DNA of 64,000 bases from Candidatus Nomurabacteria bacterium. GTDB lineage: Bacteria; Patescibacteriota; Minisyncoccia; Phycocordibacterales; UBA9973. The notes below the pieces were generated by a model. The model was not told the origin of the DNA. It did no database searches and saw nothing but the letters and a program-made list of their open reading frames with translations. The translations under genes and the position numbers were made by a program. Below are positions 2,597 to 27,251 of this stretch, piece after piece. Every line of letters begins with the position of its first letter. The stretch's first letter is position 1. The stretch spans positions 387,697-451,696 of the forward strand of contig CP060230.1 of assembly GCA_023898605.1 (NCBI GenBank), read 5' to 3'.

Positions 2597-2622
2597 CAAA
2601 AGCTCCCACATGGGGAGCTTTT
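2597..2622 (-). terminator. rho-independent terminator downstream of rplL
   Basis: aaaa-gctccc-acatg-gggagc-tttt hairpin with flanking A and T runs, so bidirectional. Confidence 0.6.
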
Positions 2623-2687
2623 GATCGGGCGAACATTTATTTTTACACAAAGTGTTCAAATAAATGTTTTAGCCGGTAAAGTTGAGA

Positions 2688-3221: not shown

Positions 3222-3231
3222 ACTTTTTAGA

Positions 3232-5526: not shown

Positions 5527-5607
5527 ATTTTATAAAGTGATTATATCACAAAGATTATACTTGAATATCGTTTTGACTAAATCAAGTATAAGTTCTATAG
5601 TTTTGTT

Positions 5608-6891: not shown

Positions 6892-6893
6892 AA

Positions 6894-7814: not shown

Positions 7815-7817
7815 TTT

Positions 7818-8477: not shown

Positions 8478-8621
8478 GATATTGAATATACCAATAATAT
8501 CTATTTTGTGGTAGTGTCTGAAACTTTTATATAATTGTATTACCTGAAAATGAAAAACATATTAGCTTCATGACCATACTTGGAAACATCTCTTCTAACT
8601 TCGACAAGATATTTTAAATTA

Positions 8622-9590: not shown

Positions 9591-9683
9591 ACTTATGCAA
9601 ACCATTAAAATAACACTATTAATGTACCATATTGAGTCCTTTTCTTTTAATTTAGACTCGTGTATCTTATAATTTACATATCT

Positions 9684-11665: not shown

Positions 11666-12765
11666 GTAAAAACTTCAATGTATCTTTTCATTATAACCTC
11701 GTGGTCAAATACTTTCACTCTTTCTTTTGCCTTTTTACCAAACATCTCTAGTTTATTTTTGTCTCCCAGCATGCCTACCATCTCTCCTGCGAGAGTATCT
11801 ACATTGTCCAGAGGATAATTTATACCGAACTCTCCGTTTCTGGTTATTTCAACTGCTGGCGGTATATCAGAAGCGATAACTGGAACTCCGCAAATCATAG
11901 CTTCTATCATGGCATTTGGCATGCCCTCATATCTAGAAGGCAGTACGTAAATATCCGATTTCGCCATAAATGCATAAGGGTTTTTTTGGAAACCTATTAT
12001 TTTGAACTTATCGGAAACCCCGGAAGAGATTGCCATTTTCTCTAGAACCTCTTGATCTTCCCCGTTTCCCAATATTATGAGTCTAGAGTCTATTTTCTCT
12101 TGAGACTTTATAAACGCTTCTAGTAGAGTAGTAAAACCTTTTTGCTCAGTAAGCCTTCCAACAGAAATAATCACTGGTTTATCTTTGTTATCCAGCCAAT
12201 CTTCTCCTGTTTTTTCTAAACTTTTGGACAAGATTTCTTCTGTTGGTTTTGGACTGTATATTGTTGTTATTTTAGAATCTTTGACTTTTACAACACTTCT
12301 AAAGTCATTTGTTATAAATTCTGAGTTACCTACTATAAGATCTGCAAACGGATAAAACATCTTTATTAAAATAGGCAAAATCCTTTCTCTCCAGTTGGCC
12401 TTGCTGCCACCTCTTGAGAAAGGTATGCCGAGTCTTAGTATTATCTTAGTATCGACTCTAGATATCATCTTTGCCCATATAGAAATAAGGTGTGGGTGCT
12501 TCGATATAGAAAGAAGTGCTTTTGGTTTGTTTTGTTTCAAGTATCTAATCAATTTAGGCAAAGAAAATATAATTCTATCTACATCTAAATCAACGATTTC
12601 AACATTTTTATCAACTAAATCTAAATACGGTCCTCTTTTTTTAACCAAAACTAAATCAACATCAAATCCTCTTTGTACGAGATCATTGGAAAGATCTACT
12701 ACTACTTTTTCACCGCCACCTCTATAAAGGTCAATTATAAAAAATGCTATTTTTTCTTTATTCAT
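11659..12765 (-). CDS. glycosyltransferase family 4 (GT1 group)
   Basis: EGMPNAMIEAMICGVPVIASDIPP. Confidence 0.8.
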   Translation of the reverse strand: MNKEKIAFFIIDLYRGGGEKVVVDLSNDLVQRGFDVDLVLVKKRGPYLDLVDKNVEIVDLDVDRIIFSLPKLIRYLKQNKPKALLSISKHPHLISIWAKMISRVDTKIILRLGIPFSRGGSKANWRERILPILIKMFYPFADLIVGNSEFITNDFRSVVKVKDSKITTIYSPKPTEEILSKSLEKTGEDWLDNKDKPVIISVGRLTEQKGFTTLLEAFIKSQEKIDSRLIILGNGEDQEVLEKMAISSGVSDKFKIIGFQKNPYAFMAKSDIYVLPSRYEGMPNAMIEAMICGVPVIASDIPPAVEITRNGEFGINYPLDNVDTLAGEMVGMLGDKNKLEMFGKKAKERVKVFDHEVIMKRYIEVFTC

Positions 12766-13759
12766 AATTATTTATACTTTTAGATAATTCTTTAATTTGT
12801 TCTTCTATATCATTCAATGGTATTTTTTCTAAAAACCTAATTCTTCCGTTTCTTTTTTCTTCTAAAACCTCTCTACTTGTACCGACAATATCATCTTTTA
12901 TTTTATACAAGATGGTTGCTTTTTTATTATAAAAAGGAAGCCAATGGGGTGTACCGTTTTCGGCAAGAACAAGTGTTCTTTTGTCTAATATATTTGCAAG
13001 ATGTGTTATGCCAGTGTCGACACCAATAAAAAAATTGGATTCTTTTATAAGTTGGGTTACAGCGTCTATGTCTTTTCCTGTAAAATCAAAAAAATCACAT
13101 CCCTCAATAACTTCGAGCTTTTTTGTGTCTTCAGAAGATCCTGTTATATATATATCGTAATTTGGAAAATTATTTTTTATGAAAAAAAATACACTTTTTA
13201 GCTTTTCATCAATCAGGCTTCTTCCTGCACTAGCTCCAAATGGATGGAAAACAATATATGGTTTTTTTTCAAAGTAAGAAATATTTTTTGTTTTTAAAAA
13301 CATATTATTTCTTGAAAAGGATATGCCTGTTTTTTCTGCAAGGTAAAAAAGTGATTCTATGTATAGAATATCAGTCCTGAAACTAACAACCTTGTTGTAA
13401 ATAAAAGAGTTTATTTTTGAACTGTCATCAAAACCAAAAAGTTTACTTTGAAAATTTCTAGAAATTATCCATGAACTAAATTTTTGATGCCATGGCAGCC
13501 TTGTAAAAGTTGGGGGTGTTATTACTATATTTTTTTTAAATAAAAAATTAAACAAATCATGAGGATACGATAGTAATTTTATATGAGGATATTCTGATAA
13601 AAACTTTTTCATAATGCCATTATTTCTACTGGTAGAAATAAAAAAATTAAAATCTTTATTTTTTTGATATACGCAATCAAGAAAAAGGAGTGTCATCAAA
13701 AAATCACCAATGGACCCATTTATAAAAAAAATAATATTTTTTTCTTTGTTTTTTTTCAT
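12758..13759 (-). CDS. glycosyltransferase family 9 (heptosyltransferase-like)
   Basis: IGVDTGITHLANILDKRTLVL resembles the GT9 signature. Confidence 0.55.
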   Translation of the reverse strand: MKKNKEKNIIFFINGSIGDFLMTLLFLDCVYQKNKDFNFFISTSRNNGIMKKFLSEYPHIKLLSYPHDLFNFLFKKNIVITPPTFTRLPWHQKFSSWIISRNFQSKLFGFDDSSKINSFIYNKVVSFRTDILYIESLFYLAEKTGISFSRNNMFLKTKNISYFEKKPYIVFHPFGASAGRSLIDEKLKSVFFFIKNNFPNYDIYITGSSEDTKKLEVIEGCDFFDFTGKDIDAVTQLIKESNFFIGVDTGITHLANILDKRTLVLAENGTPHWLPFYNKKATILYKIKDDIVGTSREVLEEKRNGRIRFLEKIPLNDIEEQIKELSKSINNYE

Positions 13760-14377
13760 CTATTTATGCTTTGCAATCAAAATAATAGTATCGAACAAAA
13801 TTGGATTTATAAAAAAACCAATAAAACGCTTTATAAAAACAAATGGATTATTTGACTTGAGTAAAGTTCTAAAAGAACCTGAGAAACCAGAAGAAGATTT
13901 TGTAAAAATCTTTATTGCCTCAAGTCCGGACTCAGAACACAAATTTTTATAAGATGATTTTGTAAATGGTCTTATGTGACTTGGATCGTTCCAAAAAAAC
14001 ACATTATGAAAAGGCACAAAAAGCCTAGTCCAGTTTGGAGATTCAATAAATATTCTCCCCTCTTTTTTTAAAACCGTTTTAAAACCCCTTACTATATCTA
14101 CTGGATACAAAATATGCTCCAAAACATGTTGGGATATAATTACATCAAATTTTTCTTCTAAAAAAATATTTGGTATATCCTTTACATCTCCTTCTTTAAA
14201 TACGATATCTTTAGGCAAGTTATGATTTTCAAAATCTACTGCATAAAAATTGATATGAGGACACTCCTTTTTTATAAATTTTAAATCTCTCCCCTTTCCA
14301 CAACCCGCATCAAGAACTTTTGAATGCTCTGGGAGTTCTTTCAAATATTTGATAATTGTGGGGGTACTTGTTCTCAT
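13760..14377 (-). CDS. class I SAM-dependent methyltransferase
   Basis: VLDAGCGKGRDL motif I. Confidence 0.7.
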   Translation of the reverse strand: MRTSTPTIIKYLKELPEHSKVLDAGCGKGRDLKFIKKECPHINFYAVDFENHNLPKDIVFKEGDVKDIPNIFLEEKFDVIISQHVLEHILYPVDIVRGFKTVLKKEGRIFIESPNWTRLFVPFHNVFFWNDPSHIRPFTKSSYKNLCSESGLEAIKIFTKSSSGFSGSFRTLLKSNNPFVFIKRFIGFFINPILFDTIILIAKHK

Positions 14378-14379
14378 TT

Positions 14380-15168
14380 TTATTTTATTTTATTTTTTAC
14401 CTTATTTAGAACTCTTTCAAAAAAACTTTTTTGTTCGTTTTTTAATTCCTCACCAGGTCTTTCTTTGAAGATAGTAGAGTGGGCCTCTGCCCTAGCTTCT
14501 ATGTCTTTTGCCGGAGACGTATAGTAATAAAGTGCAAGAGACTTTCTAGTCATGTCTTCCGGACAATTTATTGGATCTGGGTGACCATGAAAACTATCTT
14601 CAGATGTGGAAAAAATAGCAAGCCTATTAAAAATAGGCAGTACCTTTACCTCAGCCTTTGTCATATCTTTGTTCCACAGTTCAAAGTGTCCGCCATATTC
14701 TTCTTTCCAGTTATCATTTAAATACAAAAGAACATTTATTCTTCTTTCTATATGAAGTCTTGGGTACCAATTGAAGTCAACATGGACCTTTAGAAATCCA
14801 CCCTTTTTTATCTGGTGCATACCACCACCTCTGTAGTGAGGATCTGGAATTATACCTTCTATACCTGTAAGTTTTTCTAGAAAATTGATGAACTCACTAG
14901 AATTAAATTCTTTCAATGTCTCTCTTATTTCCGCGGGAAACTTAGTAGCATCTTCACATGCCATTTTGTATTGGTATTGATCTTTATAGTCTTTATTCCA
15001 TACATCAGAATCAACTTTTGGAAAATTATTTAGAAGTTCTCTTGCCAAATCTTCTGATAAAAAGTTATCAAAATATATATGCTGGCAAGGTTTTGCGTTC
15101 TGATACTTGGAACTATTTTGCTCCGCCAAGGTATTTAGCTTGTTATAGTCAAATTTTGTTTGATTCAT
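14380..15168 (-). CDS. 2OG-Fe(II) oxygenase (prolyl-4-hydroxylase-like)
   Basis: HVD...GGHFELW provides the H-x-D...H facial triad, with a downstream Arg. Confidence 0.6.
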   Translation of the reverse strand: MNQTKFDYNKLNTLAEQNSSKYQNAKPCQHIYFDNFLSEDLARELLNNFPKVDSDVWNKDYKDQYQYKMACEDATKFPAEIRETLKEFNSSEFINFLEKLTGIEGIIPDPHYRGGGMHQIKKGGFLKVHVDFNWYPRLHIERRINVLLYLNDNWKEEYGGHFELWNKDMTKAEVKVLPIFNRLAIFSTSEDSFHGHPDPINCPEDMTRKSLALYYYTSPAKDIEARAEAHSTIFKERPGEELKNEQKSFFERVLNKVKNKIK

Positions 15169-16184
15169 ATTTTTTCCAAAAGATTTTTTATAATAATTTT
15201 TGGAGTTAGTTTTTCTAAAAAAGTTTTATAGCCTGAAACAGCTACTTTTTCACAAATAGCAGGATTATTTTTTGCAAAAAGAATCCTCTCCTCTATACTT
15301 TTATCATTTACACTAGAGCAGAATATCACATTTTCAAGATCATGTAAAAGCTCTTTTGTTGCACTTGTTTCAAGTGTAACAACCGGCTTTTTAGAAGCAA
15401 GTCCTTCATATACCTTGTTTGGAATTACAATATTTGCTTTTTTTGTATCGCCAAAAATACCGAGCACCAAGTCAGCTTTTGACAAAACCAGAGAAATATC
15501 TTTATATTCAAACCTTGGAAAAAATTTTATATTATCAGAAACTTCTTTGGTGCTGCTTCCGTATATATGGAACTCTATATCTTTATGCTGCGATAAATTT
15601 TTAGCTGCACGTATTATTTTATCTAAACCGTGAAGCGGTGTTCCTATACCGTGAAAATGAACTATAAACTTATCACTTTTTTCCGAGACCATAGGGTAAA
15701 CTATTTTTTCATTTGCGCCAACATAAACAACCAAAAATTTTTTCTTTTTTACAAAAAACTTTTTAGAGATGAAATCTTTGTGAGAATTTGTATCTATAAG
15801 TATAACCGGTGAAAAAACAAGAGATAACCAGTCAAGAAACCAAAAATAAAACGCTTTTAAAGAAGTTTTAGAAAACTTTTTTCTGTCCTCAATATTAGAA
15901 TTATAAAGTGATACAAAAAAATCTAAAACTACCTTTTTACCAAAAAGGATTCTGGCAAACCACAAAACACTGTGTCCGGGAAAAAGAACGAAAACCTTGT
16001 CGAAATTAGAGTTTTTATTTTTTTTATACTCGCGAAATAATGAAAAATATTTTTTTAGACCTTTATTTTTTTCCGGGTCAACAACACACTCGTACACCTC
16101 TACCCCGTTTGAAACAAGACCGTCTATAATTACAGAATTTCTTGAATAATTTTTATCATATATACCAAATAATAAAATTCTCAT
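15165..16184 (-). CDS. glycosyltransferase (GT-B fold, family uncertain)
   Basis: N-terminal MRILLFGIY GT-B start and C-terminal IPNKVYEGLASKKPVV. Confidence 0.45.
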   Translation of the reverse strand: MRILLFGIYDKNYSRNSVIIDGLVSNGVEVYECVVDPEKNKGLKKYFSLFREYKKNKNSNFDKVFVLFPGHSVLWFARILFGKKVVLDFFVSLYNSNIEDRKKFSKTSLKAFYFWFLDWLSLVFSPVILIDTNSHKDFISKKFFVKKKKFLVVYVGANEKIVYPMVSEKSDKFIVHFHGIGTPLHGLDKIIRAAKNLSQHKDIEFHIYGSSTKEVSDNIKFFPRFEYKDISLVLSKADLVLGIFGDTKKANIVIPNKVYEGLASKKPVVTLETSATKELLHDLENVIFCSSVNDKSIEERILFAKNNPAICEKVAVSGYKTFLEKLTPKIIIKNLLEKI

Positions 16185-17206
16185 AAAATATGATCTTTAA
16201 TTTTTTTTATTAAATCAACAAGCTCATGATTTTTTGTTACAAAATCCCTTGCCTGACTATCGATACCTAGATCTGATAAATATTTTATTTTTTGTGCTAT
16301 TTCTTGTGGATTTTCTGAACACTTATTTTTTTCTGGCATATATGACATAGCTTCATTCGAAGTTAGGACATTTAATCCGCAAGACATGGCTTCTAGGATA
16401 GCCTTGTCTAGACTTCCGGTCTTACTAAGGTTAACAAATATATTTGCATCATTATAAATAGTTGGGATCTTATCTTGAGAAATAGGACCTAAAAACTCTA
16501 CCCTGTCATAAATATTTAAACTATCTATGAGATTTAAAAGTTTTTTCTTATAATTTTTATCTTCTGGTCCAACTATACTTAATTTTGTTTCGAATCCTTC
16601 TTTTTTCAAAATAGATATAGCTTCTAATAGTGGTTCGTAATTTTTATAAATAGATACTCTTCCTATAGACACGATCTTTCTATGATCCCTGTCTCTATTT
16701 ATTACAGAAAACTTAGAGGTATCTATACCATGACCCATAATGTGTAGCTTTTTACTTGGCAATCTAAAACTTTCTTTTGAAGCAGAAAAAACACTATCAC
16801 AAAGCTTCTCAGCAAGGCGAAGTTTCATGTCGACGTTTTTGTGTGTATACCACAGAGCAATTCTCTTCCCCATCATTTTCCAGAACACTCCGCCCAAAAT
16901 AACATATATCGGATTCATGTGAACAAAAACACTGTCATAATTATTCTTTTTTGAAAAAATATATTTATAGAATCGAAAAAGATACTTTATTCTAGATACA
17001 CCCTCCTCTTTTCCAAGTGACAGAACTTCTACATTGCTAGGCAGATTATATTCTCCTTTTTTGAGACACACTACAATTACAGACTCAAAGTTTTTGGCAA
17101 ATTCCAAAATCCACGAGTGAAAAAATCCCAAAATTGGATCATTTTTGTCTACAATTTGTGTAATTATAAGAATCTTCTTTTTCATAATTAGATCGCCTTT
17201 TTCCAA
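16181..17206 (-). CDS. glycosyltransferase family 4
   Basis: DKAILEAMSCGLNVLTS. Confidence 0.7.
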   Translation of the reverse strand: MEKGDLIMKKKILIITQIVDKNDPILGFFHSWILEFAKNFESVIVVCLKKGEYNLPSNVEVLSLGKEEGVSRIKYLFRFYKYIFSKKNNYDSVFVHMNPIYVILGGVFWKMMGKRIALWYTHKNVDMKLRLAEKLCDSVFSASKESFRLPSKKLHIMGHGIDTSKFSVINRDRDHRKIVSIGRVSIYKNYEPLLEAISILKKEGFETKLSIVGPEDKNYKKKLLNLIDSLNIYDRVEFLGPISQDKIPTIYNDANIFVNLSKTGSLDKAILEAMSCGLNVLTSNEAMSYMPEKNKCSENPQEIAQKIKYLSDLGIDSQARDFVTKNHELVDLIKKIKDHIL

Positions 17207-18267
17207 TTTGAAACTATTCTGTCGTAATACTCTCCTTGGTTTTCATAAAAATTATAACTTCTGTTTTTCACACCAACTTTTAATGTGTGAAGTATGTCGC
17301 TCTTGTCTATTTCTTTCAAGATATTTCTTATAGCAGCATGATCTCCCGCATCATAAAGAAGTCCGTTTACCCTGTCGTCTATAACCTTGTCTGCTATCCC
17401 CACCCTGCTTGTTATAACAGGAGTTCCATTCTGAAGAGACTCTACTATCGCCATACCAAAACCTTCAAAAAAAGAATTATTCCAAAATACATCTACATTT
17501 CTCATATAAAACCCCAGATCAAAAGCCCACGGCCTAACTAAAACCCTGTTTTTTGAATCACTTTTTATTATGTTCAAAATTGCACCTTTCATGGAACCAT
17601 CTCCGACAACAACAAGTCCAGAGTTTTCCAAATTATCTTTTACAAAAATTTTAACACCTTCGTATATCCCCTTCTCTTTCTCAAATCTTCCAGAAAGAAG
17701 TATGGTTTTTTGGAACTTTTTTGTAAATTCTAAAAATTCCTCATCTTTGAATTGAGACACGAGGCCGGGGTTTTCGGTTATTATCGGAATTATATCTGAT
17801 GGAATACTTTTTACATCAAAAACTTTTTCTATGTTTTCTTTTGTTTTTTCTGAAACGTATCTTATGACATTTGATTTTTCCAAGACTTTTCTAGCCAAGA
17901 AAAAACGAATTTTTCCGAAAAAACTTTTTCTAAAGAATGGACTTGCAACATCTGTGTGGACTTGTGTATGAAGTTTTGCACCGAGAAACCTAGAGACAAT
18001 AAGCGAAACTACTCCTATAAAAAACGGGTCTTGGCTTGTAACCAGATCAATCTTGGAAGAAACCAGACTCTTTATCTTAAATGGAGAAAAAAGATTCTTG
18101 GAAACGGGGGTTATTCTGAATCCGTCACCTTCTATGATCTTTTTTTCACTACAGAGGCAAACAACTTCTAGGTAGTCCACCCTCTTCGCGTATTCTTTTA
18201 CACGCAAAAAAGTCGAGCTATCTTCTCGAAAAACTTTACTATCTCCACTTATCATCAAAACTTTCAT
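17188..18267 (-). CDS. glycosyltransferase family 4
   Basis: FEGFGMAIVESLQNGTPVITSRVG. Confidence 0.75.
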   Translation of the reverse strand: MKVLMISGDSKVFREDSSTFLRVKEYAKRVDYLEVVCLCSEKKIIEGDGFRITPVSKNLFSPFKIKSLVSSKIDLVTSQDPFFIGVVSLIVSRFLGAKLHTQVHTDVASPFFRKSFFGKIRFFLARKVLEKSNVIRYVSEKTKENIEKVFDVKSIPSDIIPIITENPGLVSQFKDEEFLEFTKKFQKTILLSGRFEKEKGIYEGVKIFVKDNLENSGLVVVGDGSMKGAILNIIKSDSKNRVLVRPWAFDLGFYMRNVDVFWNNSFFEGFGMAIVESLQNGTPVITSRVGIADKVIDDRVNGLLYDAGDHAAIRNILKEIDKSDILHTLKVGVKNRSYNFYENQGEYYDRIVSNWKKAI

Positions 18268-19361
18268 ATCTTTTCAAATATATTTATTATCTTCTCACCT
18301 GTTTTTTCAAAAGAGAAAAATTCTGAATCTTTCTTGGCACTAGAAGATATATCTTCTCTCTTCTGACTATTTTCTTCTAGAGAAAAAATCGCGCTTTTTA
18401 TAGATTCTGGGTCATCTGGGTTTATAAACACTCCGTTTTGTCCGTCTCGGATTATCTCTTCTAGATTTGAAACCCTGCTTGCCAAAACAGGAGTACCGAG
18501 CATCATAGCCTCAACAATCTGAAAAGAAAAGCTCTCGAACTTGGTTGGCAAAACAAAGTACATAGACTCTTTTATATACCTATATAGATCAGTTTGTGGT
18601 AGTGTGCCGGTAAATACAACTCTTTCACTTACATCCATTTCTCTAGCCAGCTTTTCTAGTGACTCTCTTTCTGGTCCATCACCAACAAGATGAAGTGTCC
18701 AGTCTGGCATCTTGGAAATAACTTGGATCAAAACACCGAAGTTCTTCCATGGTACAAATCTTCCAGAAGAAATTATAGTCTTTGGTTTTTTGGGAATATT
18801 ATCATACAGACTTTCATCTATCTTTGGCACGCCATTGTACACGACTTCCATTTTGTCTTCTATAATTCCCCACTTGGAAATAACACCGGCAAAGTACTTA
18901 CTAGGAACTATCACTCTAGTCGCCCTCTTTGCGACAAGCCTTTCTAGTTTTTTGAGTAGTTCTATTTTCTTGCCATATTTTTTTGTTTGGAAAACTTCTA
19001 TGTCGTCTGACACTCCCCACCTCTGTCTTGCTTGCTCCCATACATAGTCTCCAGGGATTCTCAAAACATATTTTCTACGCAGAACAAAACAAGCAATCAT
19101 TGTCGGAAGACCTACACTTAGTGTGTCTTGTACAAAAATATATTTTGAAGAAAGAATCTTCCGAAGAACTAGAAAAGTAAAATGTATATGTCTTATGCCT
19201 TTTGGGTATTTTCTAGAAACACGAAACATTGCGACGTCTACCTCCTCCCCCCTCTCTTCTAGGAAGTTTTTCAAAAGTCTTGCATAAGTAGCTGGACCAC
19301 CTATCTCGGGTGGATATATACCAGTTACTATTAGAAATTTTTTGCCTTTATTATTCATCAA
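18264..19361 (-). CDS. glycosyltransferase family 4
   Basis: ESFSFQIVEAMMLGTPVLASRV. Confidence 0.8.
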   Translation of the reverse strand: MMNNKGKKFLIVTGIYPPEIGGPATYARLLKNFLEERGEEVDVAMFRVSRKYPKGIRHIHFTFLVLRKILSSKYIFVQDTLSVGLPTMIACFVLRRKYVLRIPGDYVWEQARQRWGVSDDIEVFQTKKYGKKIELLKKLERLVAKRATRVIVPSKYFAGVISKWGIIEDKMEVVYNGVPKIDESLYDNIPKKPKTIISSGRFVPWKNFGVLIQVISKMPDWTLHLVGDGPERESLEKLAREMDVSERVVFTGTLPQTDLYRYIKESMYFVLPTKFESFSFQIVEAMMLGTPVLASRVSNLEEIIRDGQNGVFINPDDPESIKSAIFSLEENSQKREDISSSAKKDSEFFSFEKTGEKIINIFEKI

Positions 19362-20514
19362 ATATAACTCGCATCTTTGAGACGACCATCTCCCAAGTAT
19401 ACTTCTCTTCTACCATATTTCTAGCTCGGAAGATAATCTTGTTTCTGAGTGTGTCGTCTCGGAATCTAAGCACTGCGTCTCGTATAGAGTCTGGTTTTTC
19501 TACTTCGCAGAACACCCCTGTTTCGCCATCTACCAGAAAGTCCGGTATCCCGCCAACCGGAGTAGCCACAACCGGAAGTCCTGTCGCCATAGCCTCCAGA
19601 AAGGCGTTTCCTAGGCCCTCAGAGAGCGATGGGCGAATAAATACATCACTTATATACAAATACCCCGGCATCTCTCTATGAGGCACATAACCCTTCCAAA
19701 TCACCCTCTTTTCTACCCCCAAATTCAGGGCCAATTTGCGGAGTTTTTTCTCTAGTGGGCCAGAGCCGAGGATCAAGAATTTGTACTCTTTTGGCAAGAT
19801 AGCTAGCGCGCTTATTACATCCCCCACCCCGTTTTTCTTGACCAGCCTAGAAGAAGTAACTAGTAGTATATCACTCGGTTCTTTGCCGACTTCTTCTCTA
19901 ACTCTTTCCAAACTTATCGGATCGGGTTTCTCAGAAAATATACTTGTATCTACAGCGTTTGGTACAACAAAACTCTCTCCCTTGAAACCCATACTTTTTC
20001 CAAAGTCTTCTAGATATTTTGAAATCGCTTGTATTTTGTCTGCTTTCAGAAAAATCATTTTGAAAAGTGGATACACCAAAGCGACTCTTCTCTTGATATA
20101 CGGGATCGGATCACCTTCTTGCAGTGTTAGAAGAAACTTCACTTTTGGAAACTTGAGCTTGAAAAATAGCGCACCAAACCCTGCGTAGTTCGCCATCATC
20201 GCCCAAGTCATATCGTAATTTTCTTCTTTGTGGAGTTTCTTGGCATACCCGTACGAAGCAAACGGAAACATGTATTTCGACAAATGAAACAGTATCTTTC
20301 CGATAAAAGGTACGCCTAATAAATATGGTCCGACTCTATGCACAGTTACATTTCCTATCTTTTCTGTCTTCTCTCTATTTGTCCTCATGGTAACCATGTG
20401 GAAGTCAAATCTGTCGCCCAGTCTGTCTGTTATTTCCTTGATCGCAACCTCTGCTCCACCAACAAAATCTGGGTAATAGACCAAAGAAAACAGGAGTATT
20501 TTCTTTTTGTTCAT
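19351..20514 (-). CDS. glycosyltransferase family 4
   Basis: EGLGNAFLEAMATGLPVVATPVGG; its first 20 codons and 14 bp of upstream sequence are duplicated at 21998-22071. Confidence 0.8.
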   Translation of the reverse strand: MNKKKILLFSLVYYPDFVGGAEVAIKEITDRLGDRFDFHMVTMRTNREKTEKIGNVTVHRVGPYLLGVPFIGKILFHLSKYMFPFASYGYAKKLHKEENYDMTWAMMANYAGFGALFFKLKFPKVKFLLTLQEGDPIPYIKRRVALVYPLFKMIFLKADKIQAISKYLEDFGKSMGFKGESFVVPNAVDTSIFSEKPDPISLERVREEVGKEPSDILLVTSSRLVKKNGVGDVISALAILPKEYKFLILGSGPLEKKLRKLALNLGVEKRVIWKGYVPHREMPGYLYISDVFIRPSLSEGLGNAFLEAMATGLPVVATPVGGIPDFLVDGETGVFCEVEKPDSIRDAVLRFRDDTLRNKIIFRARNMVEEKYTWEMVVSKMRVIFDE

Positions 20515-20529
20515 AGGCTAATTATAGCA
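20456..20529. repeat. 74-bp perfect direct repeat copy A (5' end of the GT gene plus upstream 14 bp)
   Basis: read directly; identical to 21998-22071. Confidence 0.9.
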
Positions 20530-20628
20530 TTTTCAGATTTTTAGAGAAAAAAATACCTAATCTCCTTTACTCAATAACACCACATTCTTTTATAGCTTTA
20601 GCGTAGATCATAAACTTTCCACGCTTAA

Positions 20629-20665
20629 TATTAGCATAGAAAATGTAAATAGAAATTACTTATAT
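20629..20665. repeat. 37-bp promoter-like repeat copy 1
   Basis: near-identical (2 mismatches) to 21178-21214; on the minus strand it carries TTTACA and an AT-rich -10-like stretch. Confidence 0.7.
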
Positions 20666-20670
20666 ATAAA

Positions 20671-20700
20671 ACAAACACCCCCTAGAAGAGGTGTTTTGTC
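20671..20700 (-). terminator. terminator-like hairpin downstream of the barstar-like gene
   Basis: acacc/ggtgt stem with U-rich flanks; a weak terminator. Confidence 0.35.
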
Positions 20701-20756
20701 TTAAAACTTATTCAGATGATTTATACTGACCCAAAAGTAGGCCCTAGATAATCTTA

Positions 20757-21149
20757 TTATATTTTATCTAACAAGATTTTAATTCTTTCTTTATACTTTT
20801 CTGGAAACATCACTATTAAACTCCCATCTGAATTTTCAAAAATATTATTTATCAAAACACTCAATAAAATAACTTTTTCTTTTTCATCAATATCGGGAAT
20901 ATCCACATGATATATAAGAATATTTTTTTTATCTTTAATCCAGTGAAAATCTGACAAACATTCATCTAAAGCATCCCAATTAAAACCAAAATATCCTGGA
21001 AACCTAAGTGCCTCAGCATATGATCTAAATAAATCTTTTTTACTATTTATCCCACCAGGAATAATACCTATATATGTATCTGCGTAATTTTCAATGTCTT
21101 CTAGTTTTCCAAATTGAATTTTCATATTATTTATCTTAACTGAAGTCAT
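20757..21149 (-). CDS. barstar-family protein (barnase/RNase inhibitor-like immunity protein)
   Basis: LRFPGYFGFNWDALDECLSD aligns with barstar [20 protein letters not shown], including the Asp and Cys; 130 aa. Confidence 0.65.
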   Translation of the reverse strand: MTSVKINNMKIQFGKLEDIENYADTYIGIIPGGINSKKDLFRSYAEALRFPGYFGFNWDALDECLSDFHWIKDKKNILIYHVDIPDIDEKEKVILLSVLINNIFENSDGSLIVMFPEKYKERIKILLDKI

Positions 21150-21177
21150 TATTGAAAACTTAATACTATATTAATGA

Positions 21178-21214
21178 TATTAGCATATAAAATGTAAATA
21201 AAAATTACTTATAT
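21178..21214. repeat. 37-bp promoter-like repeat copy 2
   Basis: lies 30-70 nt upstream of the 130-aa barstar-like start at 21149. Confidence 0.7.
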
Positions 21215-21255
21215 GACAAAAATAAACACCTACTTTTTATCCAAAAAAACATAAA

Positions 21256-21549
21256 CTAACTCCAGAGTTGAATATTTTTCTGCTTAAATTCCTTCAACCA
21301 CTCAATAAATTCATTTACTGAGATGAAGTTATATTTTTTTAAATCTTCCAATTCTTTTTCATCTTTTGTGGTAAAGTCCTCTTTGTCGTGAATTTCGTCA
21401 ATAAAATCAGTTTCTATATCAGACAAAGTTTCATAGAGTCCCCCTTTATCTAATGATCCAATATACAATTTTTGCCAATTTTTATCAAATTCTTCGAAGT
21501 CAATTTTCCCTTCAATAAACGAATCTATGAGTTCAATAAAATTCTTCAT
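21256..21549 (-). CDS. small acidic hypothetical protein inside the immunity cassette (possible immunity protein)
   Basis: 98-aa helical acidic ORF taking the internal ATG (MKNFIEL); the track start at 21594 overlaps the upstream gene. Confidence 0.3.
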   Translation of the reverse strand: MKNFIELIDSFIEGKIDFEEFDKNWQKLYIGSLDKGGLYETLSDIETDFIDEIHDKEDFTTKDEKELEDLKKYNFISVNEFIEWLKEFKQKNIQLWS

Positions 21550-21565
21550 ATTTGTTAATTTTATA

Positions 21566-21904
21566 TTATTTTTTAAATTCATACTCAAAGACAAAATCTT
21601 TAGAATTATTAACCTCCCCTTGACTTGTTCTTTTTAAAATATCTTCAAAAAAATCAAAATGTGAACCAAATATTTGTCTTAACTTTTGTTCACCATTTAT
21701 TATAAGTTTTATTTTTTTTATATTTTGATTTTTGACAATAAAAGAATCATCCCATAAACCCCACATCCAATCATCAAAAGCGTCTAGATTTGGCATTACT
21801 GTTACTTCTGACCCTGGAGTATAGCGAAAATCAAAGGCCTCCTGAAGGATGGAAAAGACATCTTCTTTAGTTTTTGAGTTTTCAAAATTAACTTGTATTA
21901 TCAT
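21566..21904 (-). CDS. barstar-like protein (second copy, divergent)
   Basis: EDVFSILQEAF...YTPGSEVTVMPNLDAFDDWMWG parallels barstar DLHQTLKKEL...[16 protein letters not shown]. Confidence 0.45.
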   Translation of the reverse strand: MIIQVNFENSKTKEDVFSILQEAFDFRYTPGSEVTVMPNLDAFDDWMWGLWDDSFIVKNQNIKKIKLIINGEQKLRQIFGSHFDFFEDILKRTSQGEVNNSKDFVFEYEFKK

Positions 21905-21909
21905 GATTA

Positions 21910-22056
21910 ATTATTATTACTAGAATATTTAGTTTTAATTTTAATTTTTTTAAATGACTTATAATGACTATTTGTGAAATATATCTCTCCTTCTTTACCA
22001 CCAACAAAATCTGGGTAATAGACCAAAGAAAACAGGAGTATTTTCTTTTTGTTCAT
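21910..22056 (-). pseudogene. remnant duplicate of the GT N-terminus (first 20 codons of the 19351-20514 GT, then out-of-context sequence)
   Basis: ATG at 22054-22056 inside repeat copy B; 49-codon ORF ending 2 nt before the ATG of the 21566-21904 gene. Confidence 0.55.
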
Positions 22057-22071
22057 AGGCTAATTATAGCA
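21998..22071. repeat. 74-bp perfect direct repeat copy B
   Basis: identical to 20456-20529; contains the stop codon (TAA at 22064-22066) of the upstream GT. Confidence 0.9.
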
Positions 22072-23155
22072 CTCCCGAGTACACCTCAAAAACCTTGTTT
22101 ATCATGATTTCTTTTGAGAACTTACTATTTACAACCTCTCTTGCCTTGTTACCCATCTCTCTCAAATCCTTATCCAATATCTCATTTATAGCTTCTGCCC
22201 ACACATCAGCGTCAGCATTTCTAGGTATAAGTATGCCGACTTCACTAGAAACGGCTTCTTTTATACCGCCGACATCACTTGCAATGACTGGAGTTCCGGA
22301 AGCCATCGCCTCGAGAATAGTCATAGGAAATCCTTCCCATAGTGTCGGCAAAACAAAAACGCTCGATTGTGTGAGTTTCTGCAATACTGATCTTCTATCT
22401 AAAGCACCGAGTAGAAAAACACGATCAGAAAGTGACATACCTTCTACTAGATCTTTGATATCTTCCATGTCAGGACCATCGCCTATTATTTCTACTTCTA
22501 CTCTCCTTTCATACTTCTTCTCTAGTATTCTTACTGCTTCTATCACCTTTTCTGGAGTTTTTGGTAGAGCGAGTCTTCCCACAAACGTAAGTTTTGGGAT
22601 TTCATTTTGTGTTTTTTCTACAAAACTTGGGACCTCTACCCCGTTGTAGATTAGCTCTACCTTGCCAGGATTTATGAGCGGAAGTTTCTGAAGTAGTTTT
22701 TGGTCGTTTCTAGAGACGGCTATTATTTTTTTGCAGAAAAACGATGCTTTCCATTCCATTATGAACGCTATCGGCTTTCTCCAAAGTGGTGCCCCGCCAG
22801 TAAATGCGATTCCATGTGCGGTAAAAACAGTAGAATATTTTAATCCCAGAGAAAATCTACCGATTATCCCTGCAAACGAACTATGGCAAGAAACTATTTC
22901 TGGAGAAAATTTCTTTGCGACTTTTCTCAAACTTCTCATCACAGAAAGTATGACAATTGGGTTAAATGTTCTTCTTATGCCGCCAAGTATCTCTACCTCG
23001 AAACCGAACTCTCTCGCTCTGTCACAAAGCCATCCGTCTTGTCCCGAAACGAGAAGCACGTTGTCACCCTTCTCCTTGTGCGCCGAAAGTAGCTCGAACA
23101 CGACACTCTGTGCCCCTCCAAGTTCTGATTTTGTTATAAGGTATAGAACCTTCAT
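22064..23155 (-). CDS. glycosyltransferase family 4
   Basis: EGFPMTILEAMASGTPVIASDVGG. Confidence 0.8.
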   Translation of the reverse strand: MKVLYLITKSELGGAQSVVFELLSAHKEKGDNVLLVSGQDGWLCDRAREFGFEVEILGGIRRTFNPIVILSVMRSLRKVAKKFSPEIVSCHSSFAGIIGRFSLGLKYSTVFTAHGIAFTGGAPLWRKPIAFIMEWKASFFCKKIIAVSRNDQKLLQKLPLINPGKVELIYNGVEVPSFVEKTQNEIPKLTFVGRLALPKTPEKVIEAVRILEKKYERRVEVEIIGDGPDMEDIKDLVEGMSLSDRVFLLGALDRRSVLQKLTQSSVFVLPTLWEGFPMTILEAMASGTPVIASDVGGIKEAVSSEVGILIPRNADADVWAEAINEILDKDLREMGNKAREVVNSKFSKEIMINKVFEVYSGVL

Positions 23156-23156
23156 T

Positions 23157-25154
23157 TTATATGTTTTCTAGTTTCAAGAATGAGACCTCAGGGAATGTTT
23201 CCTCTTGCTTCAATATGTGACTGTAAATTCTTTGTGATACTTCTATGTTTGGGTTGAGTTCGAGTGCCATTGTAGAATATTCTTTTGCAGAAGGAATATC
23301 TCCACCATATAGCTTTGTAAGAGCCAAGACAGAGTAAGCTAGCGGATTATTAGGAGAGAGTTCAAATGTACCGTTCAATAAAATATTCTCTGAATCTTCC
23401 AACCTATCTTCTCCCAATATTGTTGAGAATTGATACAAGTAAGCAAGCGCTACTCTTCCTCTATAATCATCTGGTCTTTCTTCTACATGTTTTTCATATT
23501 CTTCTATATATAGGTTTAATTCTTTCTTTGCTATAACCTGCTGATCTTCAGACAAACCAGTTTTGTACATAATATTGTGTATGCCACTAACAAATCCTGC
23601 GTACAAGAATCTTCTTATCTCGAAACTACCAGGTCTCTTGAATGCATTTTCTATATTTATTGATCTTTCTTCGTAATTTTTACTATTGAAAACCTTTACC
23701 AAACTTCTTTGCCAGCTCATATCTGTAAAGAAAAGTACCAAAATAGAAACAAAAAGTGGTATAGCTATTATTTTGTGATAGTTTTTGTTGTCTTTTAATA
23801 CATATTCTTTGTTATCCTCTTCTGTAAAAGATCCAACAGAAAAGATAAAGGCTAGAAGAGACCACCACAAGAACAAGCTACTAACCATATCAAAAGATGT
23901 TTGTAGTTGTATTATATGTCCAACAAAAACGAGTCCCAAAACATGAGCAAGTCTGTCATCTATGTTTCCTTCTTTTTTGTTTTTGTTAAGTGTGTATATT
24001 GCAAAAAATATAACAGAAAGATACAAAAGAAGTCCTAAAAATCCGTTTGCCACCAAAGTATCGACGATTATATTGTGAGCCCTGTCAAACCAAACTTCAC
24101 CTATGTTTTCTTTATAGTAAAGTCTGTTGTCAAAATACTTTGTAAAGGGAACCTCGAAATTGTCTCCGCCCCACCCCAAAACTGGCTTTTCTAAAACAGC
24201 ATCAAAAGAAAAGTCCCATATTATAATTCTGGCTGCGGTAGAAATCTCTATATACTTTTTCTGAACAAAAGAGTTTGAAGTAAACAAAAGAGAAAGAAGA
24301 ATACATACAGACAACAAAGAAACCGTACTAAAAGACTTCAAAGTTATAGACTTTATATTATCTTTTTTAACAAATCTTTTTATAACTTCTCTTATAAATA
24401 AATAAACGAGTCCAGCATATGCAACTACAGCCGATGCTTGTGCAGAACCAACTATAGAAGATATTCCAGTAAACTCGTTTTTACCAAGTAGAGTGTTGTA
24501 GTTTATAAAAATAGGACTTATTGCTTGAATAAAAAGCAAAGATCCATAAATCAGTTTTTCTTTTTTAATTTTACTGTTTAGAAAAAACGCTATGGTTATA
24601 AAAAATGTCAAAGCAAGGTATGCTCCAGCAAAAGTAGAGTTACCAAAAGTCATACCATCTGTGGCAAAATTAAGAAAACCGACTCTCTTGTTTATAATCC
24701 ACAATCCATTTTGACCAAATATATATAAGAAAGAAAAAATAGAAGAAGAAACTATAAGTGACTTCAAAAAACTAAACCAATCATTTTTTGTCAAAATTTG
24801 TGAGTTTACAAACGAAAGAATAAGCAAAACTAAAACTGTCAAAAGTCCGGTTTCTCTTTGTATGTCAGACCAAAAAGATCTAGAAAAATCTACTCCTAAA
24901 ATTGCTGAAACAAATAAAGATGAAATAAAAAGTACTATCGAAATAGAAAGGTACTTTGAAATCTTGGGGATTCTTATTTGTTTATCCTCTCTAAATGCAA
25001 AAAAAAGTAATGCGATTGAAGTAAGTAGAAGTAATGCAAAATATTTTGCATTTACGGAACCGTAGGCTATTTTGGTTGTTATAAAAAATGGAAAAATCAG
25101 AGTAAAAATAGAAAAAATCTTCCCATATACAGTCGTATTTTTGAACAAATTCAT
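23157..25154 (-). CDS. O-antigen ligase/polymerase-like (Wzy_C) membrane protein with C-terminal TPR-like repeats
   Basis: multi-TM region with AHNIIVDTLVANGFLGLLLYL (Wzy_C-like) and a helical-repeat C-terminus. Confidence 0.55.
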   Translation of the reverse strand: MNLFKNTTVYGKIFSIFTLIFPFFITTKIAYGSVNAKYFALLLLTSIALLFFAFREDKQIRIPKISKYLSISIVLFISSLFVSAILGVDFSRSFWSDIQRETGLLTVLVLLILSFVNSQILTKNDWFSFLKSLIVSSSIFSFLYIFGQNGLWIINKRVGFLNFATDGMTFGNSTFAGAYLALTFFITIAFFLNSKIKKEKLIYGSLLFIQAISPIFINYNTLLGKNEFTGISSIVGSAQASAVVAYAGLVYLFIREVIKRFVKKDNIKSITLKSFSTVSLLSVCILLSLLFTSNSFVQKKYIEISTAARIIIWDFSFDAVLEKPVLGWGGDNFEVPFTKYFDNRLYYKENIGEVWFDRAHNIIVDTLVANGFLGLLLYLSVIFFAIYTLNKNKKEGNIDDRLAHVLGLVFVGHIIQLQTSFDMVSSLFLWWSLLAFIFSVGSFTEEDNKEYVLKDNKNYHKIIAIPLFVSILVLFFTDMSWQRSLVKVFNSKNYEERSINIENAFKRPGSFEIRRFLYAGFVSGIHNIMYKTGLSEDQQVIAKKELNLYIEEYEKHVEERPDDYRGRVALAYLYQFSTILGEDRLEDSENILLNGTFELSPNNPLAYSVLALTKLYGGDIPSAKEYSTMALELNPNIEVSQRIYSHILKQEETFPEVSFLKLENI

Positions 25155-25192
25155 AAATCCATACTATCACATATGGGTCTTTAGATAAATAA

Positions 25193-25220
25193 CAAAAACA
25201 CCCCTTTCGGGGTGTTTTTG
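25193..25220 (-). terminator. rho-independent terminator
   Basis: aaaa-acacccc-tttc-ggggtgt-tttt hairpin. Confidence 0.6.
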
Positions 25221-25259
25221 CAAAAGACTTTTAACGTCTCCTTTATCGCTAGACTAAGA

Positions 25260-27251
25260 TTAGTTTAGAGATATTGGGCTTGTCTTGTAGTCTTCTAGAT
25301 CAAAGTCGTACACATTGAACACTGTTGCAGAGTCAGTTGTGTTCCAACCAATTGATTTTAGAAGCATTTGGTAGATACCGTCATCTTCTACAGAATCGTT
25401 TGTTTGTGTAACAAACAATGTGAATGTAGATGATTGACCATCTTCAAGCTTCCAGTTGCTGTTTGCACTAGCTACAGCGTCTCCTGATTCTGTTAGGATA
25501 TCAGCAAGATCGTCTGTTGTAGCTGTACCTGAATCTTCTACGTAGTATAGGATTCCGTCAGCGTTTGTTAGAGATGTTTCAGCGATTGAAGTTGAGATTG
25601 TAGCAGCTGCTGTGTCAGACACATAAACTGTACCGTCAAATGCTTCAACCTTGAATACTACTGTAAACTCTCCTGTATCGTCATCAGCACCATCATCTAC
25701 AAGTGTGTTTGTAGAAGCTGATACAAATGTAACGATGATACCTGTGTCGTAGAATGACATAGCGTCTCCTAGAGCAGTACCTGTAGCATCTGCGTCAGAG
25801 ATAGTATTTCCTTCTTCGTCATCAGCATCGATAGCGTCAACTTCGAATGATCTAAGTTCAGCTTTCAATGTATCACCTTCGTCAAAGTTAGAGTCAAGGT
25901 CATTGATGTCCGCTAGAACTACGAATGACATTGTGTTTCCGTCATCGATAGTTATATCGATGTTGTCAAATGTGACTGTTGCTGCTGTTAGAGGAGTAGA
26001 TGTAGAAACAGTTTCTGAGAATTCTTTTCCGTCAACTTCAAGGTGAAGTGAGTTAGCTACAAAGTCAACGTCTGTTGCACCTGTAACTGTAAGAAGAACT
26101 GGAAGATCCTTGATTTCTATATCAGAACCGTCAGCTTCGATTGAGAATCTCAAAAGCTCTACACCGTCTGTATCGCTTGAAGAGTCAACGTTTACAACTG
26201 TTGAGTCTGGACTGTCTGAGTCAAGAGTAACTTTCATCTCGACATCAGCTGCTGTAGCGAAGTCAGCAAAGTTGAATTCTGTTGCTGCGATTGTAGGATC
26301 TTCTGATATTGTTGTTCCTTCTGCATCTTTGAATCTAGCATTTGTTACGTCAACTGCCCATGAGTCTGAGTCATAGTCAGCTGAGTCAATGTTAGAGATA
26401 GCAGATATTGCAACGTAGAACTTACCTTTTGTATCAGCGTCTACTATTGCGCCATCAAGAGATATAGTCTTTGTCCACTCATCGTATCCGTCTCCATCAG
26501 AATCTTCTGCTGAGAAATCGTCTACGTTAGCTTCACCAACTTTATCTCCACCTAGCCAGATAGAAACTTCATCTGCGTAATCATCTAGGTCTTCTGAAGA
26601 ACCTGAGTCATCGTTCTCGAACCATACTTTCATTGAAGTAAATTCAAGATCTGAACCTGGGTCAACGTCAACTTCGAATCCCGCGATCTTAACATCGTTC
26701 TCACCTTCTCCTACTTCTTCAGAAGAGTATTCTCCTAGAAGTGTGTATGAGTCAACTGCACCTGCTCCACCTGAAAGTGATGAAGTTGTACCTGTTGATC
26801 CTGTAGAACCTGTTGATCCTGTAGATGAAGACATTTGTGATTGAGCAGAAGCTCTAGAAGCTGGTCCGAATACTCCGTCAGCCACAAGTCCTCTTGATGC
26901 TTGCCATGACATAACAGCAGCCTTTGTTGCAGGACCAAATGATCCGTCAACTACTAGCCCTGCGCCAGCGTAAGCATTAAGGAATGATTGAAGGTTTGAA
27001 ACATACATTCCAGATGAACCCTGTGAAAGAGTTGATGTACCGAAATCGTATGTCATCATGCTTGATGATCCACCACAAGATGCTGACAATATAGCGTCAA
27101 CAGTTGCGCTTGGGATACCAAGAGCTACAAGTGCTGCAGAAGCACCTGCACATTCAGCGTCACTCAAAGCAGAAGCTTGTCTTGCTGCACCAAAAGATAC
27201 AACTAGACCAAGTACTGCTACGATTGAAGCAAACTTTTTAATATTAGTCAT
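25260..27251 (-). CDS. secreted cell-surface protein with an N-terminal peptidoglycan-binding domain and a long acidic Thr/Ser/Asp-rich region
   Basis: signal peptide MTNIKKFASIVAVLGLVVSFGAARQASA; PG_binding-like repeats LVVDGSFGPATKAAV and LVADGVFGP; about 500 aa of D/T/S-rich sequence. Confidence 0.5.
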   Translation of the reverse strand: MTNIKKFASIVAVLGLVVSFGAARQASALSDAECAGASAALVALGIPSATVDAILSASCGGSSSMMTYDFGTSTLSQGSSGMYVSNLQSFLNAYAGAGLVVDGSFGPATKAAVMSWQASRGLVADGVFGPASRASAQSQMSSSTGSTGSTGSTGTTSSLSGGAGAVDSYTLLGEYSSEEVGEGENDVKIAGFEVDVDPGSDLEFTSMKVWFENDDSGSSEDLDDYADEVSIWLGGDKVGEANVDDFSAEDSDGDGYDEWTKTISLDGAIVDADTKGKFYVAISAISNIDSADYDSDSWAVDVTNARFKDAEGTTISEDPTIAATEFNFADFATAADVEMKVTLDSDSPDSTVVNVDSSSDTDGVELLRFSIEADGSDIEIKDLPVLLTVTGATDVDFVANSLHLEVDGKEFSETVSTSTPLTAATVTFDNIDITIDDGNTMSFVVLADINDLDSNFDEGDTLKAELRSFEVDAIDADDEEGNTISDADATGTALGDAMSFYDTGIIVTFVSASTNTLVDDGADDDTGEFTVVFKVEAFDGTVYVSDTAAATISTSIAETSLTNADGILYYVEDSGTATTDDLADILTESGDAVASANSNWKLEDGQSSTFTLFVTQTNDSVEDDGIYQMLLKSIGWNTTDSATVFNVYDFDLEDYKTSPISLN

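Follow-up and report, generated by a model that had tools for sequence, protein, structure and literature searches.

A block of three predicted RNase-toxin immunity genes flanked by a 74-bp duplication of a glycosyltransferase 5′ end in Candidatus Nomurabacteria

Two family-4 glycosyltransferase (GT4) genes in the genome of a Candidatus Nomurabacteria bacterium are separated by a block of three small predicted immunity genes, and the block is bounded by two copies of a 74-bp sequence. The DNA analysed here, referred to as the window, is a stretch of 64,000 nucleotides (nt) (64 kb; GenBank assembly GCA_023898605.1, contig CP060230.1, positions 387,697 to 451,696). All genes at the locus are encoded on the minus strand, and the order is the upstream glycosyltransferase gene GT2, repeat copy B, 1,468 bp of unique DNA, repeat copy A, and the downstream glycosyltransferase gene GT1. 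GT2 (22064–23155) encodes a 363-residue protein that matches Glycos_transf_1 (125 bits) and Glyco_transf_4 (72 bits), and GT1 (19351–20514) encodes an intact 387-residue protein assigned to family 4 by its domain match. The direct repeat is perfect, with no mismatch between 20456–20529 (copy A) and 21998–22071 (copy B), and it occurs exactly twice in the window. The 74-nt sequence begins with CCACCAAC and ends with ATTATAGCA, and a match of this length appeared in none of 100 dinucleotide-preserving shuffles. Each copy consists of 15 nt located 5′ of the GT1 ATG and 59 nt of coding sequence (19 codons and 2 nt). The unique DNA between the copies (20530–21997) has a GC content of 25.6%, compared with 35.7% for the window and 41–42% for the flanking glycosyltransferase genes.

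Copy B preserves the ancestral junction, in which the GT2 stop codon TAA (22064–22066) is followed by 7 nt and the GT1 ATG. The insertion point lies inside the GT1 coding sequence, 59 nt in, after codon 19/20. The first bases of the duplication are precisely the TG of an extended −10 box (TGCTATAAT, tgcTATAATtagcctATG), and the duplication gives GT1 back its putative promoter, its start codon, its first 19 codons, and 2 nt of codon 20. In copy A, the working 5′ end of the intact GT1, the box is located at 20521–20529 and the ATG at 20512–20514. In copy B, the box (22063–22071) includes the GT2 TAA and is followed by a 6-nt spacer, the ATG, and the GT1 5′ end. This 5′ end now opens a truncated reading frame, GT1′ (21907–22056, 49 codons), which encodes the first 20 residues of GT1, runs on into the insert, and stops 2 nt before the ATG of the first immunity gene. 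The 29 stop-free codons of GT1′ within the insert have a chance of about 0.05 at this composition. The two ends of the insert are designated segment X (21947–21997, 51 nt, promoter-proximal) and segment Y (20530–20571, 42 nt, adjoining copy A). Both segments start with TAAAG..GGAGA, but their similarity is not significant (P = 0.56), and we rejected them as transposon-like ends. An extended repeat of 89 nt (92% identity) was also rejected, as the additional 15 nt match at only 8 of 15 positions. The original prediction, made from the sequence of the window, had reported the identical 74-bp copies at these positions, the stop codon of the upstream glycosyltransferase in copy B, and a GT2/GT1 junction duplicated around an insert of approximately 1.47 kb, and all of these were reproduced. 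Its composition of each copy (14 bp and 20 codons) and its junction spacing (stop, 10 nt, ATG) are replaced by the values given above. The insertion is at the GT2–GT1 junction as proposed, but it is not strictly intergenic, being 59 nt inside GT1.

The first of the three inserted genes to be considered, barstar1 (20757–21149), encodes 130 residues from the first ATG; a second ATG at 21125 gives the 122-residue form annotated by NCBI, where a 100%-identical protein is named 'barstar family protein'. The product matched the Pfam Barstar family (PF01337) with 58.3 bits (E = 7.5e-16). Residues 34–70 align with residues 11–45 of the barstar of B. amyloliquefaciens over the barnase-binding helix (FNWDALDEC), and the counterpart of the acidic barnase-binding helix motif is YFGFNWDALDECL. 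The direct sequence match to the solved barstar is weak (E = 0.08). ORF3 (open reading frame 3; 21566–21904, 112 residues) is a divergent member of the same family and passed the PF01337 gathering cutoff marginally (24.5 bits against 23.4), with nearly the full length of the model covered (positions 3–94 of 96). Its helix motif, PNLDAFDDW (NLDAFDD; PNLDAFDDWMWG), appears to match the acidic Asp35/Asp39 region of barstar (...NLDALWD...).

The acidic product of ORF2 (21256–21549; 97 residues from the ATG or 112 residues from an upstream TTG) gave no informative sequence match in Pfam, NCBIfam, or the PDB. Its match to PF09204 (Colicin_immun) reached 12.8 bits (E = 0.18), below the gathering threshold of 22 bits. 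A search of 1.84 billion representative proteins found 17 relatives of approximately 90–95 residues, and six of 16 family members matched PF09204 below threshold, the best with E = 7e-4. A single-sequence AlphaFold prediction gave a predicted local distance difference test (pLDDT) score of 61, and the fold was resolved only in a model built from the family alignment. The latter model agrees with the fold of the colicin D immunity protein ImmD (PDB 1TFK_B and 1V74_B) at a sequence identity of 17–19%, suggesting that ORF2 is ImmD-like. Together, the domain matches and the model indicate that all three inserted genes encode ribonuclease (RNase)-toxin immunity proteins, two of the Barstar family and one with a predicted ImmD-like fold. 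The two barstar-like proteins had been expected from the original prediction, and both scored above the PF01337 threshold with the hidden Markov model. The third product had been described as a small acidic protein; it is indeed acidic, and the model refines it to a probable third immunity protein.

A scan of 56 window ORFs, every neighbour of the insert among them, detected no toxin domain, and a tblastn search of the window for barnase gave no match. The three genes are, on present evidence, orphan immunity genes within the 64-kb window, consistent with the earlier view of an orphan immunity island lacking a toxin gene: at least two immunity genes stand without an adjacent toxin, and the block is horizontally acquired (see below). 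Barstar protects the producer of barnase, and it is conceivable that the inserted genes neutralize barnase-like and colicin-D-like toxins of the cell itself, encoded elsewhere in the genome, with self-immunity unlinked from the toxins. The window represents only approximately 10% of the genome, and a relative of barstar1 with 43% identity lies beside an RHS toxin, in a polymorphic-toxin locus consisting of the RHS toxin, DMP19, Barstar, and SUKH_5 (L033). However, immunity genes are normally located directly downstream of their toxin, and none is found within 64 kb. The clustering of three immunity genes of two families without a toxin is the typical polyimmunity or orphan pattern. In addition, the genes were acquired horizontally, and barstar1 and ORF3–ORF2 occur elsewhere without a toxin on the short contigs available. 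We therefore consider self-immunity improbable. The locus of the barstar1 relative (GCA_041596355.1, JBFHIS010000005.1, 1–7151) in full encodes an RHS/YD-shell toxin, DMP19, small ORFs, Barstar, a 158-residue ORF, SUKH_5, and DUF6896. A 180-nt repeat (87% identity) is shared there by the end of the RHS gene (3176–3355) and the 158-residue ORF (5601–5780), marking an orphan toxin-tip module.

The arrangement was found in independent assemblies. A 28.6-kb contig (L001, GCA_020428735.1) contains the whole structure with both junctions and is 100% identical to the window from 19637 to 26026, with 59 single-nucleotide polymorphisms (SNPs) elsewhere. A contig from a different sample (L014, ERZ28660125) extends across barstar1, copy A, and GT1 and represents a strain with 68 SNPs. 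Two contigs from separate samples and assemblers (L007 and L009) cover GT2, copy B, and the insert, and one from a further sample (L008) begins inside copy B at 22052 and continues into the insert. L007 was assembled at k = 141, a length exceeding the 74-bp repeat. The Logan contigs, assembled at k = 31, end 30 nt into the repeat, as a true repeat predicts. Because the same arrangement is present in independent assemblies from other samples, the two-copy structure is not an assembly artefact. The source of the data is metagenomic, the Logan contigs do break within the repeat, and L001 is a scaffold with an N-gap elsewhere, all of which would fit an assembly or scaffolding error mixing two strains or loci, the explanation that the original prediction had named as counting against it. 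Nevertheless, contigs carrying each junction come from at least five independent samples and assemblers, including a k = 141 MEGAHIT assembly and the 68-SNP strain, and the source contig is reported as 619 kb. The probability of such an error is negligible.

The insert is identical between strains, while the glycosyltransferase genes carry patches of SNPs, so that the strains show what is probably ongoing homologous exchange around the block. All SNPs that distinguish the window from L001 and L014 fall in three dense patches (16958–17023, 18834–19636, and 20002–20455) inside glycosyltransferase genes, with 3.5–5.6% divergence; all else is identical, and the patches look like recombination imports. 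One patch stops at the base adjoining copy A. We examined this last SNP (20455 in L014) as a possible boundary marker and rejected it as a coincidence: it is synonymous (GGA/GGG), the next SNP is 45 nt away, and the SNP density is approximately one per 28 nt.

The locus belongs to an envelope-polysaccharide cluster of approximately 20 kb (5608 to 25154), which contains genes for a sugar transferase, an epimerase, methyltransferases, a flippase, and Wzy in addition to many GT4 genes. The window as a whole is core chromosome, encoding rplJ/rplL, nusG, recA, ssb, recO, ftsK, and several aminoacyl-tRNA synthetases. GT1 is a member of a large GT4 family of Patescibacteria, and apart from a 98% strain variant its nearest homologue is 63% identical. 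In sequences of a related species (L015, L016, and L017), the same order of FtsK, a peptidoglycan-binding protein, Wzy, GT2, and GT1 is observed, and GT2 and GT1 overlap by 11 nt with nothing between them (junction sequence ATGAAAAATAA). The uninterrupted junction that had been predicted for relatives is thus present in all three. Since GT2 and GT1 abut in this FtsK...Wzy–GT2–GT1 locus of a related species, we regard the block as an insertion here, judging from the sequence comparison, and not as a deletion in the relatives. Were the block ancestral, its loss by recombination between the 74-bp copies would precisely remake a GT2–GT1 junction, and only one distant block-free lineage was found. 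The 11-nt overlap in L015–L017, however, is a different junction and is not a product of deletion between these repeats. Furthermore, the GC content of the block is 10 points below that of its surroundings, the block contains the relic of a flavoprotein gene from another locus, and a duplicated 5′ gene end itself requires a rearrangement. An ancestral origin is accordingly very improbable. The surroundings of GT1 vary within this group: in a relative from activated sludge (L018), the GT1 homologue of 63% identity is not preceded by GT2 and is bracketed by two opposite-strand ORFs of 151 residues (2836–3291 and 4575–5030), which have no Pfam matches and no flanking repeats.

A second repeat within the insert indicated where the block came from. 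This element, D3, is found at 20628–20681 and 21177–21230, on either side of barstar1. A scan for D3 in one genome per species, covering 185,579 species, returned a single locus, in Candidatus Nomurabacteria HK-STAS-PATE-33 (L021, JACKGL010000002.1). There, four small genes of 149, 182, 151, and 187 residues (2479–5017) lie between the 23S and 5S rRNA genes on one side and an HI0933-like flavoprotein gene on the other. The small genes encode N-terminal membrane or signal segments; they have no Pfam matches, and no recombinase is located next to the array. A module of approximately 131 nt precedes each of the last three and is the same in all of them. It is built of a terminator-hairpin right arm, the D3 element with its extended −10 box (TGCTAATAT), a leader, and the MTSVKINN(M)K codons. 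The array has a GC content of 25.5%, compared with 36–39% in the neighbouring genes. The insert contains two stretches of this kind. The first (21119–21236) comprises the terminator right arm, a D3 promoter-like element with the same extended −10 box, the leader, and the barstar1 codons MTSVKINNMK. It is 92–94% identical to the three modules of the L021 array, and the N-terminus of barstar1 consists of the same ten codons as in those modules. The second (20567–20681) carries a D3 promoter-like copy, a leader of the flavoprotein type, and the first 13 codons of an HI0933-like flavoprotein gene, left as a relic. The relic ORF (20567–20611) reads MIYAKAIKECGVIE followed by a stop; no full flavoprotein gene is present in the window, and 20572–20671 is 93% identical to positions 2439–2538 of L021, which hold the D3 copy, the leader, and the first 13 flavoprotein codons.

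These shared promoter-leader modules and the 13-codon relic led us to conclude, by homology, that the insert is a fragment of a modular small-gene array such as that of L021, broken inside the flavoprotein gene. Another contig (L002) is 100% identical over its first 135 nt to the L021 module that follows the 182-residue gene and then continues with barstar1 in place of the 151-residue gene; therefore, one slot of the array holds different genes in different strains. In a further contig (L010), the region upstream of ORF3 diverges from the window exactly at 21946/21947, and the block is a mosaic. Flavoprotein relatives with 83% and 73% identity have no array upstream, and the array is thus lineage-specific. 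A native array in the genome of the window itself was sought through the flavoprotein orthologue, and none was found on the source contig among the best 120 matches. A phage or plasmid origin was rejected, as neither 50,697 phage nor 72,556 plasmid records contained a DNA match to the block. IMG/VR contained no protein relatives and no D3 element, the JGI metagenomes contained no exact match to the module leader and only distant flavoprotein relatives (62% identity or less), and nothing relevant was found in Rfam, PADLOC, or PHROGs. The absence of the block from the L015–L017 locus, its low GC content, and its homology to an array of another species all argue that it was acquired horizontally. 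The earlier reading of a cassette stands as far as an inserted block is concerned and is refined to a piece of a promoter-modular array known in a related member of Nomurabacteria.

The duplication remains to be accounted for, and we favour, with a probability of roughly 0.6, the joint reading that a three-gene RNase-immunity block from an L021-type array was illegitimately inserted into GT1 with a duplication of 74 bp. Our favoured guess for the route, which is the least certain part of the explanation, is a one-off illegitimate insertion of transformed DNA. DNA would have been taken up from a related member of Nomurabacteria and inserted once by an illegitimate event, with the two joints lying 74 nt apart on sister strands as a result of template switching or fill-in, in a manner resembling homology-facilitated illegitimate recombination. 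Selection would have kept only those products that possessed the GT1 promoter and 5′ end, and the block may later have spread among strains by RecA recombination through the flanking glycosyltransferase genes. RecA, RecO, and SSB are encoded in the window. The com genes are a conserved feature of Patescibacteria, and in Saccharibacteria homologous recombination integrates the transforming DNA (PMC10633639); transformation of S. pneumoniae creates duplications via interchromatid integration (PMC3784515). A transposase-type target duplication was rejected, as there is no transposase, no terminal repeat is present, and 74 bp is far above the usual 2–15 bp.

A target gene restored by perfect direct repeats is also the classic signature of an integrative element. 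The block could be a cis-mobilizable element whose circle, with one 74-bp copy, integrates into and excises from the GT1 5′ end, the repeats being attL and attR; mobilization would depend on a tyrosine or serine recombinase acting in trans or on RecA-mediated Campbell recombination within the 74 bp. Within the 74 bp, two 8-bp arms form an inverted repeat around an 8-nt spacer (AAAGAAAA-N8-TTTTCTTT), repeats of 44–74 bp are within the range usable by RecA, arrays of repeated modules such as that of L021 would shed circles of a module plus a gene, and a perfect 44-bp repeat brackets another insertion in the window (see below). In contrast, neither the insert nor the window ORFs scanned yielded an integrase, transposase, or recombinase domain, and the window contains no tRNA gene as a target. 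The insert is present in all three strains observed, in which neither an empty site nor a circle junction was seen. L015 does not conserve the inverted repeat, an AT-rich stretch within coding sequence (KKKILLFSL). Moreover, a circle would have the GT1-specific 74 bp only after an earlier stay at this site, so the model explains the spread of the block but not its origin. We regard such an element as an unlikely, though not far-fetched, source of the repeats.

The promoters of the block would leave it self-contained and non-polar. The TGCTATAAT box, located 6 nt before the ATG, is the probable promoter of a leaderless GT1 mRNA. From copy B, a transcript would start at the old GT1 ATG, where translation would yield the 49-codon decoy GT1′ that ends 2 nt before ORF3, and this transcript would express ORF3 and ORF2. 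The barstar1 gene is presumably driven by its own D3 promoter and ended by its own terminator, a putative intrinsic hairpin (AAACACCTCTTCTAGGGGGTGTTT and a T-run, 20673–20696). Transcription would then resume at the distal D3 copy and copy A and cover the intact GT1 together with the glycosyltransferase genes that follow it. The encoded proteins may shield the cell when neighbours or hosts deliver barnase-type and colicin-D-type RNase toxins. Boxes of the form TGnTATAAT ending 6–10 nt before the ATG, with Shine-Dalgarno sequences almost absent, are found upstream of many window genes, including those at 1829–2488, 28772–30892, 36133–37149, 45063–46970, and 61244–61762 (tggTATAATtaggccATG for the last). 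This distribution suggests that leaderless or very short-leader mRNAs may be widespread in this member of Nomurabacteria.

Several points weigh against the joint reading. No GT1 with an identity between 63% and 98% was found among 5.8 billion proteins, and the nearest insert-free genome is distant. Neither an intermediate nor a close relative with an empty site was present among the sequences examined, no donor with a contiguous X–ORF3...relic–Y arrangement was found, and the sources of segments X and Y at the insert ends were not found. The Barstar score of ORF3 is just approximately 1 bit over the cutoff. From the sequence, we infer promoter activity, leaderless translation, the coupling of the decoy to ORF3, and protection against toxins by the three proteins. 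The orphan status covers the 64-kb window, and the rest of the genome of approximately 619 kb could encode the cognate RNase toxins.

A second junction duplication was observed in the window. A perfect 44-bp direct repeat (1791–1834 and 2517–2560), which holds a last codon, a stop codon, and an intrinsic terminator, flanks a single promoter-bearing gene (1829–2488, minus strand) for a very acidic protein of 219 residues. The gene is located between rplL and a GIY-YIG gene of 94 residues; its unique part is 682 bp with a GC content of 30.6%, and the protein has no Pfam, PADLOC, or PHROG match. With this 44-bp case, junction-duplicating insertions are seen to recur in this genome. In the same region, a relic of the 3′ end of rplL (GGAGGTAAGGTTGAACTAAAGTAA, GGKVELK and a stop; approximately 2567–2590, minus strand) is found approximately 100 nt downstream of the real rplL stop codon, after a separate terminator, and resembles a scar left when DNA was replaced or inserted here at an earlier time.

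It is tempting to see the array modules, the 100-nt relic of the flavoprotein 5′ end, the 74-bp duplication at GT1, and the 44-bp terminator duplication as candidate footprints of one capture process. Such a process may place foreign genes at the ends of transcription units and duplicate the target promoter or terminator, so that the newcomer and the resident are both expressed. Functionally, it would be integron-like without an integrase, possibly operating through natural transformation and RecA/RecO. That a single recurrent and undescribed process of gene capture in Patescibacteria lies behind all of these footprints is doubtful, and we put it forward as speculation.

Three other features were noted. 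A Patescibacteria contig (L032) has a perfect 55-nt direct repeat (5768–5822 and 5923–5977) whose copies are 155 nt apart in an intergenic region, and it may be a small junction duplication. At 61244–62618 of the window, three small genes of 172, 136, and 146 residues are arranged in tandem, the last encoding an AhpC/TSA peroxiredoxin, and a 66-nt segment (86% identity) is repeated at the first two gene boundaries. At 49492–53115 (minus strand), a class-I aminoacyl-tRNA synthetase of 1,207 residues (tRNA-synt_1 and Anticodon_1) contains an inserted histidine-phosphatase domain (His_Phos_1, residues 558–713, 103 bits) in the middle of its catalytic region.

If our reading is true, ultra-small episymbiotic Patescibacteria are exposed to barnase-type and colicin D-type RNase toxins and use borrowed antidotes as gut Bacteroidales do, and acquired interbacterial defence (AID) extends to a phylum of largely unknown ecology. 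Literature searches returned no paper tying orphan immunity or barstar to Patescibacteria. The locus may also illustrate how a foreign block can enter an essential-looking envelope operon of a streamlined genome and cause no polar damage: the insert supplies a promoter and a terminator, and the target promoter and 5′ end are duplicated. Transformation tools for Patescibacteria now exist, and this arrangement could guide the design of knock-ins. The source array is itself of interest, with modules of approximately 130 nt before interchangeable genes, beside an rRNA operon and in recombinase-free surroundings.

Among known systems, the two protein families themselves provide the first comparison. 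As in barstar (PF01337; PDB 1A19 and 1BTA), barstar1 and ORF3 score above the Pfam cutoff and retain the acidic barnase-binding helix motif. Unlike barstar, they have no adjacent barnase gene, and barstar1 is longer (130 residues against 90) owing to N- and C-terminal extensions. ORF2 differs from ImmD (PF09204) in its low identity of 17–19%, its below-threshold Pfam score, and the lack of a colicin-D-type tRNase nearby. With respect to mobile DNA, the block is unlike a transposon or insertion sequence in having no transposase, no significantly similar ends, and a duplication of 74 bp instead of the short 2–15 bp. As to integrative elements bounded by att sites, direct repeats that restore GT1 are present; no integrase was found in the insert or among the window ORFs scanned, and one may act in trans. 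The source array resembles integron cassettes in that a repeated element lies between single promoter-proximal genes and the contents of a slot vary (L002 and L021). However, there is no IntI integrase, attI, or attC; the repeat of the array is a promoter-leader unit located 5′ of each gene, so that each cassette has its own promoter; and the hairpins resemble ordinary intrinsic terminators, which are seen elsewhere in the genome too.

In Rhs, contact-dependent inhibition, and type VI secretion system (T6SS) arrays that undergo sequential displacement (e.g., L033), immunity genes likewise lie beside duplicated fragments of conserved gene ends. Those fragments serve as recombination homology. 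At the present locus, what has been duplicated is the promoter and 5′ end of an unrelated housekeeping-type glycosyltransferase gene, and no toxin is involved. The AID and rAID-1 clusters of Bacteroidales (Ross et al. 2019, bioRxiv 10.1101/471110) are similar to the block in that immunity genes of multiple families are clustered without an adjacent toxin, are horizontally acquired, and have a GC content below that of the host genome. The rAID-1 clusters also consist of low-GC co-directional genes with repetitive intergenic sequences, corresponding here to the three 131-nt modules of L021 and the two D3 copies of the insert. In contrast, the XerD-like recombinase that defines rAID-1 is absent beside both the insert and the L021 array, and the neighbours are glycosyltransferase genes in the window or rRNA genes and a flavoprotein gene in L021. 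The host belongs to the Patescibacteria, and all three genes are presumably directed against RNase toxins and not T6SS effectors. The repeated unit is a full module of terminator, promoter, leader, and start codon, and the block is ectopic, inside a glycosyltransferase operon, with a 74-bp target duplication. Taking the similarities and differences together, we conclude that the locus belongs to the known class of orphan immunity islands and bears an unusual insertion scar.

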